This document shows positions 38,897 to 45,264 of a stretch of 53,618 nt of DNA, piece after piece. The position numbers were made by a program, and so were the translations under genes. Numbering within the stretch: position 1 is the stretch's first letter; each line of letters starts with the position of its first letter. The notes under the pieces are model-generated. The model did no database searches. It was not told the origin of the DNA and worked only from the letters and a program-made list of their open reading frames with translations. Source of the DNA: a virus. Its lineage: Duplodnaviria; Heunggongvirae; Uroviricota; Caudoviricetes. The DNA lies in IMG/VR virus record IMGVR_UViG_2563366968_000008; one strand, written 5' to 3'.

Positions 38897-38917
38897 ATCC
38901 GGGCGTTTGTCTTATTT
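38888..38917. terminator. Bidirectional hairpin terminator between chaperone and opposite-strand secreted-protein gene
   Basis: GCCCGG-TAGAT-CCGGGC with T-rich run downstream on plus strand and TTTTTCT on minus strand. Confidence 0.5.
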
Positions 38918-39325
38918 GATTCTAACAATATCAATAAAACCGTTACCTAAATCGACAATTGCGTGATTTTTTGCACCAGCGCCGCCTTTATTAAAAATTC
39001 TTTCAGCGAAAGCAACTTTATTTGCTTTGCACTCGTTAGCTATCCTGTTTTTTATTTCGCTGTTGTTTTCAAAGACTACGCCTACAGCAGCCTCGTTTAC
39101 AAGGCCATAATTAAACCAACGAGCATAAACTGGTTTACCTTCAAAATTTTTATCAATTGCCTTAAAAAGAATTGTGGGTGCGGCTGGTTCTTTTTTGATC
39201 ATGTCGTGATATGCGGCTACATGGTTTGCCACTTCTTCACAGTTAATGTTTATGGCCTCGTTAGCGTTAGCGTTAAATGCTAGTGCAGCAATCACAGCAA
39301 GCACCATTTTTGCTAACCGTTTCAT
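38912..39325 (-). CDS. Secreted (signal-peptide) protein of unknown function, opposite-strand insertion in tail module
   Basis: Signal peptide MKRLAKMVLAVIAALAFNANA with ANA-NE cleavage-like site; AGGGGG SD; AT-rich upstream region. Confidence 0.55.
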   Translation of the reverse strand: MKRLAKMVLAVIAALAFNANANEAININCEEVANHVAAYHDMIKKEPAAPTILFKAIDKNFEGKPVYARWFNYGLVNEAAVGVVFENNSEIKNRIANECKANKVAFAERIFNKGGAGAKNHAIVDLGNGFIDIVRIK

Positions 39326-39628
39326 AATCAACCCCCTGTAATTATTCTGATTTGCTAAATGCTTCCTTTAACTTAGTTATACACGCATATTGTTTATTTT
39401 TTAAGTGCTTTTAACATTTCTTCGATAAGGTCCGCATAGCGTTCATATTCGTTGGGACGGTAGTTTACGTTTCTCATTTTCTTATCCTCTTTCACTTCCT
39501 CCGGGACATCCGGCCTTCCTGCATCTCTTCTATCTTTCTCTACATCATATATACAAAACGGTATCGTTAAAATAAAGACATTTTGTATAAAATAGATACA
39601 TAGATCACATTTTGCATGAGGTTAAATC

Positions 39629-41971
39629 ATGGCTACCAGTGTAGGCACAATTTATTACGAAGTTGACGCAAAAACAGGACAACTTCTTGTAGCACAACGA
39701 CAGGCAGACCAGGCCTTTGACCGTATAGAGCGCGGTGCTAAACAGGCCGATCGCCAGGTAAACACACTGAAAACATCAATCAAAGCACTGACCAGGGTTA
39801 TCCATCTGCTAATTGCTGCCGAGGCCGTTAGACAGTTTATGGAAATGGCAGAGCAGGCCAAAATGCTACGCGTCAAAATCAAAATGCTTACAGGCGACGC
39901 GGAATCTGCCGGGCGGGTTTTTGATGGTCTGAAAGAAATATCCAGGGAGACGGGGCAGAGTCTGAAAGATACTGGCGAATTATGGCAAGGCCTGGCTATC
40001 TCACTAAAAAACACCTCCGCTACGGAAGGGCAATTGCTTAACCTGGTTGGCACTATTCAGAAAATGGGTGCATTAGGCGGCGCGTCAGCGGAACAGATGT
40101 CTAACTCAATGCGTCAATTCCGTCAGTCTATCGACGGCGGTGTTCTTCGTGCCGAAGAATTTAACAGCCTGCTTGAAAATACGCCGACCATCGTACAAAC
40201 AATGGCCCGCCATATGGGATTATCAATGGGCCAGTTCCGCGCCGAAATGCTGGACGGCAAGATCACGGCTGAAAGGATGGTTAACGCAATACAGGCGGCT
40301 ACGCAGGAAACAAACGATAAGTTTGCTCAGTTGCCGCGCACATCCGGCATGGCTATCAATGAGCTTAAAGTAGAAATTATGGGCCTTGTTGAGCAGTTGG
40401 ATGATCTTTTTGGCGTATCAGATGGCGTTGTTTCAGCTATCGACTTGATCACGAAAGGCGTTAAAGGGCTTGGCGATGGCGCTAAATTCGCTAAAACCTG
40501 CTTCGACACACTCAAAACGGCTGGTAGCGAATTTATCGACATGTTTGATGATGTGGCTGTTAAGGCTGGAGAGGTGGCAGAGAAGATCATCGCAATGGTG
40601 ACGCCAATCAAGGCGCTAATGGATGGCTATAAATGGATGAAGGAGGTAGTAGGGGAGCAAACCGACGAATATAACAGCAACTACGAGAAGAAATACGGGA
40701 AGACCGTTGGCAAGGTCATGCAACTACAGGATGATCTGACCGCAGCAATCCAGGCTACAGAAGAAGCAAGGAAAAATGAACAGAATGCTGCCAATGACGG
40801 AGCGATTACCGGATTCGACAAGCCAGTAGACAAGCCGAAAAAACAGAAAAAAGAGAAGAAATCGGAAGCTGATCGGCTTGGTGACAAAGGTATAAGCGTT
40901 TCTGATCAGTACAACAAAGACGCCGCCGCCATGCGCAAAGCGTTGGAGAACGGCAAGGCCATTGATGCTGCATTTGCCCAGGGTAAAATCACGCTCCTTG
41001 AGTACCGCGCCGCGCAAAAAGGGATCGGCAAGGAACTGAAAGAAGAATTAGCGCAGATCCCGGTAGATGAACTGCGTGATAAATGGTCGCAAATAGTTAG
41101 CCCGATGGACCAGCTAAAAGGCGAGGTTGACCCCATCCAGCAGGCACAAAATGAATGGGCCGTCCGTAAGCAAATGCTTATCGACCTGGGCGCTACAGAA
41201 GCACAACAGAAACAGGAATTGTTAGCCTATGAGCAGCAGATCCGCGATCTGAAGTGGGAGCAGTGGCAGGCGCAAAGCGACACTAACGGCCTTATCGGTG
41301 ATTGCGTTAATGGCCTTAAAGGTGGCATGAGCAATGCGCTTGTTGGCCTGCTTAACGGCACTCAATCATTGAGCGATGTTTTTGCTAACTTAGGGAGCAA
41401 TATACTAGGGAACATCGGCAACAGGCTTTCTGACATAGCCGCCAACTGGATAGCAGATCAAATCATGATGGAGACACAAAGCAAGGCAATGCAGGCCAGC
41501 ACAACGGCAAGTGCGGTAGCCGCTCAGGGTAGCATCGCTGCGGCAGCGGCCCCGGCAGCGGCGGCAACAGCAGCATCAACTGGCGGTAGCTGGGCGGCGG
41601 CTGGCTCTGCGGCACTCACTGCGATCATGTCTCTGGCAACATCCATCTTCGGTGGCAGGCGCTTTAATGGTGGTAGCGTCATTGGTGGCAACTTGTACCG
41701 TGTCGGGGAAAACAACAGGACGGAGCTATTCCAGACGCCTAACGGGAATCAATATATGATTCCTGGCGAGAACGGCAGAGTTATTCCGGGCCGTGATATT
41801 GGCGGCGGTGGCGGTATTAGTATGCCTGTCAGTATCAGCATTCAGACCACGAACGGATTCAGCGACGAAGACAGCCGCAGACTTGAATTAACAATGGAAC
41901 GTGTAGCCATGAAAATGATAACAAGGGAATCTCAAAGACCAGGCGGAATGTTGCAACCTCGCCGCAAATAA
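39629..41971 (+). CDS. Tail tape measure protein
   Basis: 780 aa, alpha-helical, Gly/Ala-rich segments near C-terminus; upstream of M/L/K/I/J homologues. Confidence 0.8.
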   Translation: MATSVGTIYYEVDAKTGQLLVAQRQADQAFDRIERGAKQADRQVNTLKTSIKALTRVIHLLIAAEAVRQFMEMAEQAKMLRVKIKMLTGDAESAGRVFDGLKEISRETGQSLKDTGELWQGLAISLKNTSATEGQLLNLVGTIQKMGALGGASAEQMSNSMRQFRQSIDGGVLRAEEFNSLLENTPTIVQTMARHMGLSMGQFRAEMLDGKITAERMVNAIQAATQETNDKFAQLPRTSGMAINELKVEIMGLVEQLDDLFGVSDGVVSAIDLITKGVKGLGDGAKFAKTCFDTLKTAGSEFIDMFDDVAVKAGEVAEKIIAMVTPIKALMDGYKWMKEVVGEQTDEYNSNYEKKYGKTVGKVMQLQDDLTAAIQATEEARKNEQNAANDGAITGFDKPVDKPKKQKKEKKSEADRLGDKGISVSDQYNKDAAAMRKALENGKAIDAAFAQGKITLLEYRAAQKGIGKELKEELAQIPVDELRDKWSQIVSPMDQLKGEVDPIQQAQNEWAVRKQMLIDLGATEAQQKQELLAYEQQIRDLKWEQWQAQSDTNGLIGDCVNGLKGGMSNALVGLLNGTQSLSDVFANLGSNILGNIGNRLSDIAANWIADQIMMETQSKAMQASTTASAVAAQGSIAAAAAPAAAATAASTGGSWAAAGSAALTAIMSLATSIFGGRRFNGGSVIGGNLYRVGENNRTELFQTPNGNQYMIPGENGRVIPGRDIGGGGGISMPVSISIQTTNGFSDEDSRRLELTMERVAMKMITRESQRPGGMLQPRRK

Positions 41972-41975
41972 ACTA

Positions 41976-42006
41976 AACCCCGGTGCAATGCCGGGGTTAT
42001 TTTTCG
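41976..42006 (+). terminator. Intrinsic terminator after tape measure gene
   Basis: AACCCCGG-TGCAATG-CCGGGGTT hairpin followed by ATTTTTCG. Confidence 0.55.
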
Positions 42007-42057
42007 TATTTATAAACGACCATTCCGCGCGATATATCCCCTTTCGAATATCTCGAC

Positions 42058-42312
42058 TCACTTATGAGTGCCTTTCACGCCACATAACTTGTTATAGGCA
42101 TGATGCTCAACAATTAACCAAACCTTCAAATCTTCGCTAAACAGCCTCCAATCAAGATTGATATCCATTTTGTATCCGTAACCGTCGCGTAACTTTTTGG
42201 GGTAAACTTCTTTTCTCAGAAAGGCTTTAAGTAATTCCTTACCTTTCTTGATGATCCGGTCCTGTGCGTTTTTCTGTGCTTTCAGATTTCTGTCAATCGC
42301 TACCAGTTTCAT
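42058..42312 (-). CDS. RelE/YafQ/HigB-superfamily toxin-like protein
   Basis: 84 aa; Lys-rich N-terminus and C-terminal DINLDWRLFSEDLKVWLIVEHH...GVKGTHK resembles YafQ/HigB C-termini; GGGGTGAG SD. Confidence 0.4.
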   Translation of the reverse strand: MKLVAIDRNLKAQKNAQDRIIKKGKELLKAFLRKEVYPKKLRDGYGYKMDINLDWRLFSEDLKVWLIVEHHAYNKLCGVKGTHK

Positions 42313-42329
42313 AACTCACCCCATCATCC

Positions 42330-42485
42330 TTAGTTAAGTGCCTTCAGGAAGAAGTCCCGGTATTCATCTTCTTTCGCATTCATCATGAATTGACCGTATT
42401 TGAATGCGTCGTCGAAACCCTTAACGATTGCTATTTCCACTTGTTCGAATGCGTTATTTAGCATTACTACTACATAGCGTTTCAT
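42330..42485 (-). CDS. Small ORF (51 aa) upstream of toxin-like gene, candidate antitoxin
   Basis: ATG with AGGAGG SD at 7 nt; 17-bp gap to toxin-like gene start. Confidence 0.3.
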   Translation of the reverse strand: MKRYVVVMLNNAFEQVEIAIVKGFDDAFKYGQFMMNAKEDEYRDFFLKALN

Positions 42486-42555
42486 TTTGGGCCTCCTTCG
42501 TTGGTACTACTTTCTTCTTGCTTTCTGCATACATCTTGTTGCGTGCTATGTGAAG

Positions 42556-42568
42556 CCATTTTGTAAAC
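42556..42568 (-). repeat. 13-mer GTTTACAAAATGG copy 4 (reverse orientation)
   Basis: CCATTTTGTAAAC on plus strand, followed 5 bp later by TATAAT. Confidence 0.8.
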
Positions 42569-42597
42569 TAGCTATAATCATTGTGACAATGATCTTA

Positions 42598-42620
42598 TTT
42601 TTCGCGTAGAAGCGCGTAAA
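42598..42620 (+). promoter_or_regulatory. 23-bp motif TTTTTCGCGTAGAAGCGCGTAAA upstream of M gene
   Basis: Second copy of the portal-upstream motif (2 mismatches). Confidence 0.4.
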
Positions 42621-42652
42621 GATATATACAAAATGTAACTTGTGGGGGGTTT

Positions 42653-43006
42653 ATGCCGGAAGTGTTCAGATGGACGCCGCAAAGAAGCTACAGCGTGACC
42701 AGGAAGCCAGACGTATCTGTTGTTAAGTTGGGCGATGGTTATGAGCAAAGACAGGTAAAAGGTATCAATCCATTGCTTGATAGCTACACCCTGGTGTTTA
42801 AAGGTAGTAGCGCCGGATGTGGTGATGGTGGAAACGTAGCAATCCAGGCGGAAGCATTCTTGAGGGCGCACGGCGCGGTCGAGGCTTTTTACTGGTCGCC
42901 GTCGATGGATAACGTGCAAAGGCTTTTTGTTTGCCGTAGCTGGAGCATGACTAAAGACGGTCCGCTATACACGCTAAATGCAACATTTGAGCAAGTTATT
43001 AATTAG
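42653..43006 (+). CDS. Minor tail protein M (lambda gpM-like)
   Basis: FRWTPQRSYSVTRKPDVSVVKLGDGYEQRQ and C-terminal FEQVIN resemble lambda M. Confidence 0.8.
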   Translation: MPEVFRWTPQRSYSVTRKPDVSVVKLGDGYEQRQVKGINPLLDSYTLVFKGSSAGCGDGGNVAIQAEAFLRAHGAVEAFYWSPSMDNVQRLFVCRSWSMTKDGPLYTLNATFEQVIN

Positions 43007-43017
43007 GGGGAGGGGAT

Positions 43018-43200
43018 ATGCCTTATTTTTGTGTAGTGGAGCGCACTGGCGCTTTTACATTGTTCGCCGACCATGAAATTAAAGATCTTACTGTCCGGGC
43101 TGATAACGGTGAGACGTGGTATCTTCATGATATGGGTGATGGATATATCGGCTGTACGACTTGGGATGGCAAAGAAGTCGCATTTCTATCCTACGATTAA
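43018..43200 (+). CDS. Hypothetical small protein (60 aa)
   Basis: GGGGGAGGGG SD; followed by terminator. Confidence 0.4.
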   Translation: MPYFCVVERTGAFTLFADHEIKDLTVRADNGETWYLHDMGDGYIGCTTWDGKEVAFLSYD

Positions 43201-43203
43201 AAA

Positions 43204-43230
43204 ACACCCCGCCACGGCGGGGTTATTATT
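43204..43230. terminator. Bidirectional hairpin terminator
   Basis: CCCCGC-CACG-GCGGGG; T-rich on plus, TGTTTTTT on minus. Confidence 0.5.
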
Positions 43231-43437
43231 ATCCCATTTCCATTAACGCTATATTTTCCGCTATCGTTTTCCAGTCCAGATCTACAGCGTGAACACCAAA
43301 TACTATCAATCCCATTGCGATTAGTGTTAAAACTTCGATTTTCACAATCAACCTCACTTAATTAAGAAAGGCATAAACGATGGCAATCGCGCCAGCCATT
43401 ACTAAAACATTTTCGATTACTTCGTTTACTTAATTGA

Positions 43438-43641
43438 TTAAGGTAACTCCACTTCGTTAAATGTAACAAGCACCCCTTGATTTTCTTTATTTATAATTAT
43501 TAAAGAATTAATTGAAGGCAGACATCTTTCCACGCGGTAAACGCCACCAATATCTAAACTGTAATATTCTGTTAATTCTCTATTGTTCCCTTTAGCAAAA
43601 CCCGTAAACCTAACCATTCTTTGACCGTCGTACTTTAACAT
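43438..43641 (-). CDS. Hypothetical protein (67 aa), opposite-strand operon gene 4
   Basis: ATG ORF; operon on minus strand between M and L. Confidence 0.4.
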   Translation of the reverse strand: MLKYDGQRMVRFTGFAKGNNRELTEYYSLDIGGVYRVERCLPSINSLIIINKENQGVLVTFNEVELP

Positions 43642-43649
43642 ATACAGTC

Positions 43650-43898
43650 CTATAAGTTATCACGCAGATAATTAACGCCCTTATCAGTGACGAATGAATG
43701 ATTAACCTGGTTTTCATCCGTCATGATGATGAATAACTTTTCCTGCAAGTATTTCGCTTTCGGGTACAGCGTTAAGCAGACCTGGTACAGTATCCCGCGC
43801 TCAATCAGCAAATCAATGAATTCATGTTCATGATAACCGATAAGGCGGGCGGCCTGTTTCAACGTGTACACATAATCACCGTGATTGCGCCGCGCCAT
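43650..43898 (-). CDS. HTH-like small protein (82 aa), opposite-strand operon gene 3
   Basis: YTLKQAARLIGYHEHEFIDLLIERGIL resembles an HTH. Confidence 0.4.
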   Translation of the reverse strand: MARRNHGDYVYTLKQAARLIGYHEHEFIDLLIERGILYQVCLTLYPKAKYLQEKLFIIMTDENQVNHSFVTDKGVNYLRDNL

Positions 43899-43907
43899 AT
43901 TGCCGCC

Positions 43908-44261
43908 TTATTTATTGAACGCGCCAAGTTTGTCGATACAGAAATCTTTCGCCGCTTTTTCGTATTCGCGTTTTGCTTCTGGATCGTCAGCCGGGAAACC
44001 TTTTGCGTGTATTTCACCAGGGCAAGACTGGTCCATAGAATCTGCATAATAAGCAGTGAAGCTACCATTAATATCTTTCGGGTTCATATCTTCCACCTTA
44101 TCCGGTATTTGTACTGGAGTAATTTTGAATTCTCTGGCGCGACCGAAGAATCGAACGAGTTTTTCTCCTTCCTCGACCGCCATTTCGTAACTGTCATGCA
44201 AACCGTAACCTTCCCAATCATCACTACCAGCCATCCAGACATCAAGACGATACTTTTGCAT
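43908..44261 (-). CDS. Hypothetical acidic protein (117 aa), opposite-strand operon gene 2
   Basis: ATG 44261 with GAGGGT SD; in frame within ORF 43908..44363. Confidence 0.45.
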   Translation of the reverse strand: MQKYRLDVWMAGSDDWEGYGLHDSYEMAVEEGEKLVRFFGRAREFKITPVQIPDKVEDMNPKDINGSFTAYYADSMDQSCPGEIHAKGFPADDPEAKREYEKAAKDFCIDKLGAFNK

Positions 44262-44265
44262 TTTG

Positions 44266-44430
44266 CTAACCCTCATATTTGACAGGTTCGATCTGGTATC
44301 CCAAAAGGCGGTCATCCTCAGCAAGTAAAAGCGCGTCAACCAATGCTTCACCCTCGTCGTCATACAGGGCGATAACCTTTTCCCTACCGTCTGTCATGAA
44401 TACCGTCAACTTCCATAGCTTTTCAGTCAT
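44266..44430 (-). CDS. Hypothetical acidic small protein (54 aa), opposite-strand operon gene 1
   Basis: ATG 44430 with GGAGGTG SD; 4-bp gap to next gene. Confidence 0.35.
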   Translation of the reverse strand: MTEKLWKLTVFMTDGREKVIALYDDEGEALVDALLLAEDDRLLGYQIEPVKYEG

Positions 44431-44559
44431 AACGCACCTCCGCGCCATTTTGTTAACTTCCCCTTCGTTTGAGTAAAATATACATATTGTAAAAACCACG
44501 ATCAATCCATTTTGGTGTGATTTAGCGTGGCGCAGATCACAAAATGACAAGGTGAGAAA

Positions 44560-45264
44560 ATGCGCAATATTCCGAGAGAGATGATTATTGATTCCGTCGA
44601 TGCCGGAGTTGGCGCGGTCATTGACTTATTTGAACTGGACCTTACTCCCCTGGGAGGCGAGGTTATCCGCTTCCATTCCGGCGCGAACGGCTATTACGGC
44701 CAGGTTATCTGGAAGGGAGTAGCTTACAACAGCTACCCGATCGAGGCGACGGGCTTCGAAATGAAAAATGAGGGTGTTTATTCACGGCCTCAAATGGTTG
44801 TAGCCAATATCGGCGGACTCATTACGGGGATGAACAACGATTTTAACGACCTTAGAGGAATGAAGGTTACGCGCCGCCAGGTGGAGGTGAAATATCTTGA
44901 CGCCGTTAACTTCCCTAACGGTAATCCAGACGCAGATCCATCTATTGAGGCTGTATCTTTTTACGTCGTTGAAGCAATGAGCGAAGAAACAGCGGATCAG
45001 GTGCAGTATGAACTGTCAACGCCAATTGATGCAGATAAAGCTGTCATCCCTGGGCGCACCATCCTTGCTGACGTTTGCCAGTGGCAATACAGAGGCGACG
45101 GGTGTATGTACGCTGGCGGACCAGTAGCAAACGATAAAGACGAGCCGACAAGCGATCCTAAAGCCGACAGATGTAGCCACCGTCTGAGCGGTTGTCGTTT
45201 ACGTTTCCCGCGTCCAAATCCGTTACCAATTTCCTGTTTCCCCGGTTCAAGTAAGGTGGGCTAA
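44560..45264 (+). CDS. Minor tail protein L (lambda gpL-like)
   Basis: RRQVEVKYLDAVNFPNGN...CQWQYRGDGC...CSHRLSGCRLRF resembles lambda L. Confidence 0.85.
   Translation: MRNIPREMIIDSVDAGVGAVIDLFELDLTPLGGEVIRFHSGANGYYGQVIWKGVAYNSYPIEATGFEMKNEGVYSRPQMVVANIGGLITGMNNDFNDLRGMKVTRRQVEVKYLDAVNFPNGNPDADPSIEAVSFYVVEAMSEETADQVQYELSTPIDADKAVIPGRTILADVCQWQYRGDGCMYAGGPVANDKDEPTSDPKADRCSHRLSGCRLRFPRPNPLPISCFPGSSKVG

Follow-up and report, generated by a model that had tools for sequence, protein, structure and literature searches.

Two small genes that run against the tail genes of a temperate coliphage raise the question of whether a toxin-antitoxin (TA) module is carried as cargo within the tail operon. 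The stretch of DNA analysed (the window; 53,618 nucleotides, IMG/VR record IMGVR_UViG_2563366968_000008) represents a mEp021-like (mEpimmI-group) phage, and an earlier note on it, made from the sequence alone, had described an opposite-strand gene for an 84-aa RelE/YafQ-like toxin and, upstream of it, a 51-aa ORF that could encode its antitoxin. On the basis of the list of open reading frames and the Pfam matches or annotation of the flanking genes, we located both ORFs as described, between the tape measure and M genes, together with the strong Shine-Dalgarno sequence ascribed to the 51-aa ORF (Table 1). The stop codon of the 51-aa gene and the ATG of the 84-aa gene are 17 nt apart, and the latter is preceded by the stretch GGGGTGAG, as read from the sequence.

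Table 1. Features of the two-gene island and its surroundings in the window, and homologous loci in other records
Feature	Position	Strand	Remarks
780-aa protein	39629..41971	+	Tape measure by annotation in near-identical prophages
Low-GC island	41972..42652		Whole moron, between tape measure and M genes; GC 0.39-0.43, GC skew inverted
Intrinsic-terminator-like hairpin, bidirectional	41976..41998	both	10-bp and 8-bp stems, 6 GC pairs, T-rich tails
84-aa ORF	42058..42312	-	ATG start; RelE/ParE-superfamily fold (PF24732 ParE_like), toxin-like component
51-aa ORF	42330..42485	-	ATG start; phrog_29810, candidate cognate antitoxin or partner
Shine-Dalgarno sequence	42492..42498	-	AAGGAGG (42498->42492), 6 nt before the 51-aa ATG; read from sequence, conserved in relatives
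Candidate sigma-70 promoter	42526..42554	-	-35 TTCACA (42554->42549), 17-nt spacer, -10 TATGCA (42531->42526); manual reading
Lambda-M-like tail gene, 117 aa	42653..43006	+	Pfam Phage_min_tail PF05939, E 2.6e-28
Second island, terminator-like hairpin	43206-43223	both	Bidirectional
Second island, genes	44266..44550, 43908..44363, 43650..43898, 43438..43641	-
Toxin-only allele, E. coli UMNK88 (complete genome)	NC_017641.1 1659386-1659640		= L057 3668-3922
Toxin-only alleles, IMG/VR contigs	L022 and L025, 3001-3255
Sortsnevirus gp07 homologues, 73 aa	L062 1989-2210, L063 1986-2207, L064 589-810		L062 is Sortsne gp07

The island is widespread among related coliphages. Its DNA shares 80-84% identity with that of five phages (mEp021, mEp554, mEp010, mEp044 and mEp013) and 99.4% with that of prophages in several E. 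coli genomes; phages mEp515 and MagusPhagus match only a part of it. Phage records, E. coli genomes, IMG/VR and Logan contigs together yielded 66 loci with a homologue of the 84-aa protein. Among the 58 loci analysed first, each of the 53 close copies of the 84-aa gene had its 84 codons intact, and the 51-aa gene was intact in all 50 of its copies. The 42 distinct sequences of the 84-aa gene in the full locus set gave a mean dN/dS (Nei-Gojobori) of 0.07, and 29 distinct sequences of the 51-aa gene gave one of 0.06. Both ORFs are real genes under purifying selection. Nothing other than their small size and lack of a curated function would suggest chance or decaying reading frames without function; this explanation is exceedingly improbable and is refuted by the conservation data, namely the dN/dS values and the intactness of the ORFs in more than 50 loci, and it is further opposed by the strong Shine-Dalgarno sequence, by matches to Pfam and PHROG profiles and by a confident fold prediction for the 84-aa protein.

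The 84-aa protein is basic and, as the earlier note had remarked, rich in lysine (15 K, pI 9.9, charge +10). The profile search against the RelE/ParE superfamily that the note had called for gave a match to Pfam family PF24732, 'ParE-like toxin domain' (E 9e-12, 45.3 bits against a gathering cutoff of 24.4), a family matched by all 27 aligned homologues; the protein also belongs to phrog_1525, which has no known function. No other Pfam family was matched at E<=10 by the protein or the 26 homologues searched, an NCBIfam scan of the 84-aa and 51-aa proteins gave no match, and neither protein gave more than noise when all PDB chains were searched by sequence and by profile, with no sequence match of the 84-aa protein to any solved ParE protein. 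An exhaustive HMMER search and two word-indexed searches retrieved a small phage-restricted family with no characterised relatives, and no relatives were found in a scan of GTDB species-representative genomes. In the prophage of E. coli M1/5, where the surrounding DNA is 99.4% identical, RefSeq lists a protein identical to that of the window (WP_000779577.1) under the RefSeq/PGAP name 'ParE family toxin-like protein', so that the toxin-like nature is already on record as annotation in PGAP and Pfam; this label rests on a computed profile, and the partner gene is a 'hypothetical protein' in PGAP. Our literature searches found no experimental work on any PF24732 member and, under mEp021, PF24732 and ParE-like prophage or moron topics, no study of this pair; the one paper found on this phage group, which deals with mEpimmI genomics, makes no mention of it (PMC11893012).

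Structure prediction lent the RelE-like fold the support that the note had asked for. The AlphaFold2 (AF2) model of the 84-aa protein, built with 27 homologues (pLDDT 88.5, pTM 0.77), consists of a beta-hairpin (residues 3-13), a helix (18-32), three strands (47-50, 55-59 and 65-69) and a second helix (70-77), followed by a disordered tail (residues 80-84, pLDDT <50), and thus describes a small basic protein in which a 3-4-stranded antiparallel sheet packs on an N-terminal helix or helices, as in the superfamily. The best Foldseek matches of the model were YoeB (probability 0.94), YafQ, HigB and ParE2. The scores are modest and the list of matches is homogeneous, and we consider the assignment of the predicted structure to the RelE/ParE fold sound. 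The resemblance to YafQ and HigB proposed earlier was seen at the level of structure, where both proteins appear among the Foldseek matches, but not in family profiles, neither of these Pfam families being matched. The pattern 'DW..L...HH...GTH', which the note had pointed to, is literally present, but only R56, W65, H70 and N74 are invariant in this region whereas H71 and the GTH vary, the GTH tail being limited to the coliphage clade and falling within the low-confidence end of the model. In the alignment of homologues down to 31% identity, including Sortsnevirus gp07, the invariant residues are L28, K40, L41, G46, R56, W65, H70 and N74, with K23 and D61 nearly invariant; across the family, position 55 stays aromatic and position 73 is Y or F.

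Members of this superfamily may act as ribosome-associated RNases or as gyrase poisons, and we weakly favour mRNA cleavage of the RelE/YoeB/YafQ type over ParE-like poisoning of gyrase, because the structural matches to the RNase branch are slightly better and because K40, R56, H70, N74 and Y/F73 are invariant in the family. In interferases the conserved catalytic residues, on the face of the sheet and at the C-terminus, are E46/R65/H83/Y84 in YoeB, K52/K54/R61/R81/Y87 in RelE and H50/H63/D67/H87/F91 in YafQ. When mapped by eye, the five residues seem to lie in topologically matching elements: R56 coincides with the catalytic arginine of both YoeB (R65) and RelE (R61), in a strand motif aromatic-R-L-hydrophobic, and H70 and Y73 lie near the C-terminal catalytic residues of the same two toxins. 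However, neither the 84-aa protein nor its homologues matched the RelE, YoeB, YafQ or HigB profiles of Pfam. YoeB, the toxin of the E. coli YefM-YoeB system (PDB 2a6q), resembles our protein in its length of 84 aa and in the upstream position of its antitoxin gene, and shares with it, besides the arginine aligned by eye, the helix motif RI(I/V)KKxxEL(L/I)K; in BLASTP and hhalign comparisons this helix alone was aligned (RIIKKGKELLK versus RIVKKINELIK), the hhalign match spanning only 16 columns. YoeB differs in that the 84-aa protein does not match its Pfam family (YoeB_toxin), starts with a beta-hairpin instead of helix alpha-1 and has no clear counterparts of E46 and H83, and the 51-aa partner is not of the YefM/Phd type. 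Compared with DinJ-YafQ and HigBA, there are again no Pfam matches, D54 is not conserved in the family, the 51-aa partner lacks the features of DinJ and HigA, and the gene order is opposite to that of HigBA; the GTH near the C-terminus recalls the TGTH87 of YafQ, in the coliphage clade and its low-confidence tail only.

A true ParE-type module, in which the 84-aa protein would poison DNA gyrase, with the 51-aa protein as a minimal helical antitoxin of the PaaA2 type that lacks a DNA-binding domain, agrees with the names given by Pfam and PGAP, with the invariant H70-x3-N74, which by eye resembles the LHQxM(N/D) end of ParE1 from Caulobacter and M. tuberculosis, and with the helical prediction for a partner that, like PaaA2, has no DNA-binding fold. 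Structures of the PaaA2-ParE2 complex are also among the structure-search matches. Against this stand the failure to match Pfam ParE_toxin (PF05016) at E<=10, hhalign probabilities of 0.07 versus Caulobacter ParE1 and of 0.1 for the 51-aa family versus a provisional PaaA2 sequence (those of YoeB and ParE1 being verified), a hydrophobic residue in ParE1 at the position of R56 (aligned by eye), and a length 10-20 residues below that of a typical ParE. Moreover, the gyrase-type ParE structures all ranked below the toxins of the RNase branch in both structure searches. We regard a gyrase-directed module as an unlikely sub-variant. The PaaA2-ParE2 system of an E. coli O157:H7 prophage (PDB 5cw7/5czf) is among the closest known systems, being prophage-borne and having in PaaA2 a very small, helical antitoxin devoid of a DNA-binding domain, features that the model suggests for the 51-aa protein as well; unlike in that system, the operon described here has no third, PaaR2-like regulator gene, neither protein is similar in sequence to its counterpart, and the toxin is shorter.

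The 51-aa protein itself is mildly acidic (pI 5.1) and falls into phrog_29810 (E 9e-40), a family without known function; it has no match in Pfam, NCBIfam, PADLOC or PDB. All of its 57 database relatives share at least 76% identity with it and come from E. coli phages, and among sequenced phages it is present only in seven mEp021-like records. AF2 models the monomer as one helix of 49 residues (pTM 0.40), a result that is uninformative on the fold, and the protein is probably not a globular domain by itself. Searches of Pfam, NCBIfam, PHROG and PDB found no DNA-binding domain of the kinds used by antitoxins (RHH, HTH, AbrB, Phd/YefM); some accepted antitoxins, such as PaaA2, also lack one. A relationship by duplication to the first small ORF of a neighbouring island (44266..44550) was considered and rejected (BLASTP E 5.9).

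The two genes are closely linked. Both are present in 54 of the 57 close loci, with the 51-aa gene upstream and a spacer of 17-21 nt (once 37 nt), and each 51-aa gene inspected in E. coli genomes was followed by the ParE-like gene. The locus thus consists of adjacent, co-oriented small genes with the candidate antitoxin first, conserved together as in type II TA systems, and the charges of the products are complementary (pI 9.9 versus 5.1). The linkage is broken, however, in E. coli UMNK88 and in the IMG/VR contigs L022 and L025, each of which has an intact 84-codon gene but cleanly lacks the 51-aa gene, whereas a type II toxin gene is not expected to be kept without its antitoxin. In these toxin-only loci the junction is clean, the toxin gene lying directly behind the conserved intergenic/promoter region. 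By blastn at 'distant' sensitivity, the 51-aa gene was found in 34 E. coli genomes, and no copy was found anywhere in that of UMNK88. The solo toxins differ from a paired toxin by 2-3 residues, and the two solo lineages differ from each other by 3 nonsynonymous versus 7 synonymous changes; therefore, the solo toxin gene is still constrained. Thus, of the proposal that the 51-aa ORF encodes the antitoxin, synteny and charge speak in favour, while homology gives no support and the toxin-only alleles speak against it.

We also found that the two proteins have not diverged in step. An identical 51-aa protein is paired with toxins ranging from 67% to 100% identity to that of the window. High conservation covers the intergenic region and the 51-aa gene but reaches only ~17 codons into the toxin gene. 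The fraction of majority codons is 0.81 at the 5' end of the toxin gene (42262-42312) and 0.76 in the 51-aa gene, and falls to 0.52-0.65 in the rest of the toxin gene, suggesting that the toxin gene is crossed by a mosaic or recombination boundary, or else that there is a constraint at the nucleotide level. Toxin variants of 47-61 aa recur in the protein database (Ecol_244 P0099, P0033-P0040 and P0107), most of them frameshifted within A-rich runs of Lys codons and one truncated only at the N-terminus. In E. coli Ecol_244 (L066 1459-1623), the only such locus examined, the 51-aa gene is intact beside the truncated toxin gene. Recurring frameshifts and truncations are as expected for a harmful gene; some of the short variants may be homopolymer sequencing errors.

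The island has the properties of a phage moron, in line with the opposite-strand cargo in the tail operon described by the earlier note: its genes lie on the opposite strand, its GC content is low, compared with ~0.47-0.59 in the flanking tail genes, and it has a bidirectional terminator-like hairpin of its own; its promoter is a candidate read manually. The hairpin lies 4 nt past the stop codon of the tape measure gene and 60 nt past that of the toxin gene and, judged from its sequence, would end both converging transcripts. The candidate promoter of a leftward two-gene operon is an inference from the sequence: a scan for consensus promoters reported none on the minus strand of the intergenic gap, the -10 hexamer reads TATACA or TATATA in most relatives, and both hexamers are kept in the solo-toxin variants, where the spacer differs. 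As in the morons of lambdoid phages, opposite orientation, an own terminator and lower GC are combined with extra cargo that varies among relatives; unlike those, which are sporadic insertions, the 51+84 pair almost always heads the island throughout the mEp021 group. Downstream of the toxin gene there is no cargo in the window; mEp021 has two genes there, one of them for a zinc-ribbon protein, mEp515 and strain E21845 have an HNH endonuclease gene and small ORFs, and MagusPhagus and STEC308 have other small ORFs. In mEp515 (mEp515_91; L004 1822-2328) and E. coli E21845 (L059 1922-2404), the last 13 nt of the ParE-like gene are shared with the HNH endonuclease gene, which extends the leftward operon in those relatives.

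Several further sequence elements were noted around the island. An inverted repeat, TTTTCGCG-tagaag-CGCGTAAA (42599-42620), lies in the gap before gene M and is nearly invariant among relatives, those with a solo toxin included; it might serve either of the divergent transcripts as an operator or a 5'-UTR element. A perfect TATAAT on the plus strand (42573-42578), pointing towards gene M, overlaps the palindrome ATCATTGTGACAATGAT. The perfect 17-bp palindrome at 42577-42593 is degenerate in relatives and is probably not a conserved operator. The island is bracketed by a 16-nt imperfect direct repeat (14/16 identical; CGCCGCAAATAAACTA at 41960-41975 and CGCCGCAAAGAAGCTA at 42675-42690), one copy at the end of the tape measure gene and the other inside the start of gene M, which could be a relic of insertion or simply due to chance. 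A plus-strand ORF of ~40 aa (42487..42609), called in MagusPhagus and mEp515 by Phanotate-based annotation, starts with TTG in the window, overlaps the candidate promoter and is probably spurious. A search of Rfam returned no family within 41800-44700.

Two other low-GC stretches were observed in the same region of the genome. A second opposite-strand island (43206-44550), with GC down to 0.33, separates gene L from the M-like gene and the 60-aa gene that follows it. This island encodes an 82-aa protein with a KilAC/ANT antirepressor domain (PF03374, E 7e-7) as well as three proteins without a Pfam match, ends at a bidirectional terminator-like hairpin and differs in content among relatives. 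Just upstream of the tape measure gene is a third stretch (GC 0.35-0.40) with a 139-aa minus-strand ORF (38912..39331) without a Pfam match; E. coli M1/5 has two minus-strand genes at this position, one of them annotated as 'type VI secretion system-associated protein TagO'.

The 'ParE-like' family is carried largely by phages, virulent ones among them, an observation that is new here. The distant PF24732 members have other upstream neighbours, and most of them are in virulent phages. For example, the Sortsnevirus gp07 gene, which lies immediately ahead of the lysis cassette, shares 4 nt with an unrelated gene of 115-125 aa on its upstream side; other homologues are present in contigs of ~140 kb (L054 and L056) and in arrays of small phage genes (L006-L008). 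In addition, proteins of Klebsiella phage RaK2 (H6X4G1) and Yersinia phage fHe-Yen9-04 (A0A2C9CWY5), annotated with a 'ParE-like toxin domain', gave TM-scores of 0.71-0.85 in BFVD against our model.

The reading that we consider best, at somewhat less than even chances, is that the pair is a type II-like toxin-antitoxin moron expressed from the prophage, consisting of a toxin with the RelE/ParE fold and a 51-aa helical partner that would be a new, domain-less antitoxin. It draws on the fold and family of the 84-aa protein, the TA-like gene order, spacing and charge, the linkage in 54 of 57 loci, the dN/dS values, the decay of the toxin gene and the moron features; it is weakened by the toxin-only alleles, the domain-less nature of the 51-aa protein, the pairing of an identical 51-aa protein with toxins only 67% identical to that of the window and the absence of a PADLOC match, and by the presence of PF24732 in virulent phages, with other upstream neighbours, where addiction makes little sense. 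The main rival, less probable but to be reckoned with, is that the 84-aa protein is a stand-alone phage effector with the RelE/ParE fold and not a self-poisoning toxin, the 51-aa protein being an accessory or independent protein encoded at the head of the same operon; such an effector might serve host takeover, modulate translation or DNA topology, or act as a counter-defence decoy. The intact solo genes under purifying selection in UMNK88, L022 and L025 fit this well, as do the occurrence of the family across virulent phages (Sortsnevirus gp07, RaK2, fHe-Yen9-04, L054 and L056) in arrays of small co-oriented genes, the lack of antitoxin homology in the 51-aa protein, and the suggested mosaic boundary within the toxin gene, by which the evolution of one protein is uncoupled from that of the other. 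However, linkage is almost perfect in the temperate group, with an order, spacing and charge typical of TA systems, the 4-nt overlap of the Sortsnevirus homologue with its upstream gene is itself TA-like, the toxin gene is recurrently frameshifted, and antitoxin partner swapping is common among RelE/ParE toxins.

A broader version, in which PF24732 would be a phage-specific branch of the RelE/ParE fold serving virulent and temperate phages alike as a host-directed effector or counter-defence factor, with the 51-aa protein as a new minimal modulator dispensable in some lysogens, seems doubtful to us; it would account for intact toxin genes that have no partner, for the occurrence of the family in RaK2-like, Sortsne-like and 140-kb lytic phages, and for the failure of the two proteins to co-evolve.

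The locus is best explained as a self-contained moron of a mEp021-like (mEpimmI-group) phage, organised as a leftward two-gene operon opposing the late tail operon. Transcription would start within the 167 nt that precede gene M, from a weak candidate sigma-70 promoter, and stop at the bidirectional terminator shared with the converging tail transcript past the tape measure gene. The proximal gene encodes a mildly acidic, probably helical 51-aa protein limited to this phage group, and the distal gene a basic 84-aa protein of the RelE/ParE superfamily. In the toxin-antitoxin reading, the 51-aa protein would bind and neutralise the 84-aa protein; once freed, for instance when the prophage is lost or host expression is shut off by an infecting phage, the 84-aa protein would stop growth. 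The selection on both genes, the fold class, the tight linkage and the moron features are shown by the analysis; in this scheme we infer the promoter, the toxicity, the neutralisation by the 51-aa protein, the molecular target and the biological role, be it prophage stabilisation or abortive infection. The defence or stabilisation function suggested in the earlier note is not established; no PADLOC defence model matched either protein at E<=1.

Toxin-antitoxin cargo is commonplace in prophages, and the pair is a plausible and fairly ordinary instance of it; what is new here is modest, namely a candidate family of 51-residue antitoxins and the natural toxin-only alleles. If the pair proves to be a working module, the known partners of RelE/ParE toxins would be joined by an antitoxin family of very small size (51 aa) and without a domain, and the gut-prevalent mEpimmI coliphages would gain a candidate function in prophage stabilisation or exclusion, encoded at a recombination hot spot in the tail operon; otherwise, it would be a routine example of prophage cargo. 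The toxin-only alleles, such as that of UMNK88, and the homologues in strictly lytic phages together provide a ready-made test of whether members of this Pfam family are toxic, and the toxicity of the family bears on how thousands of 'ParE family toxin-like' annotations are to be read.
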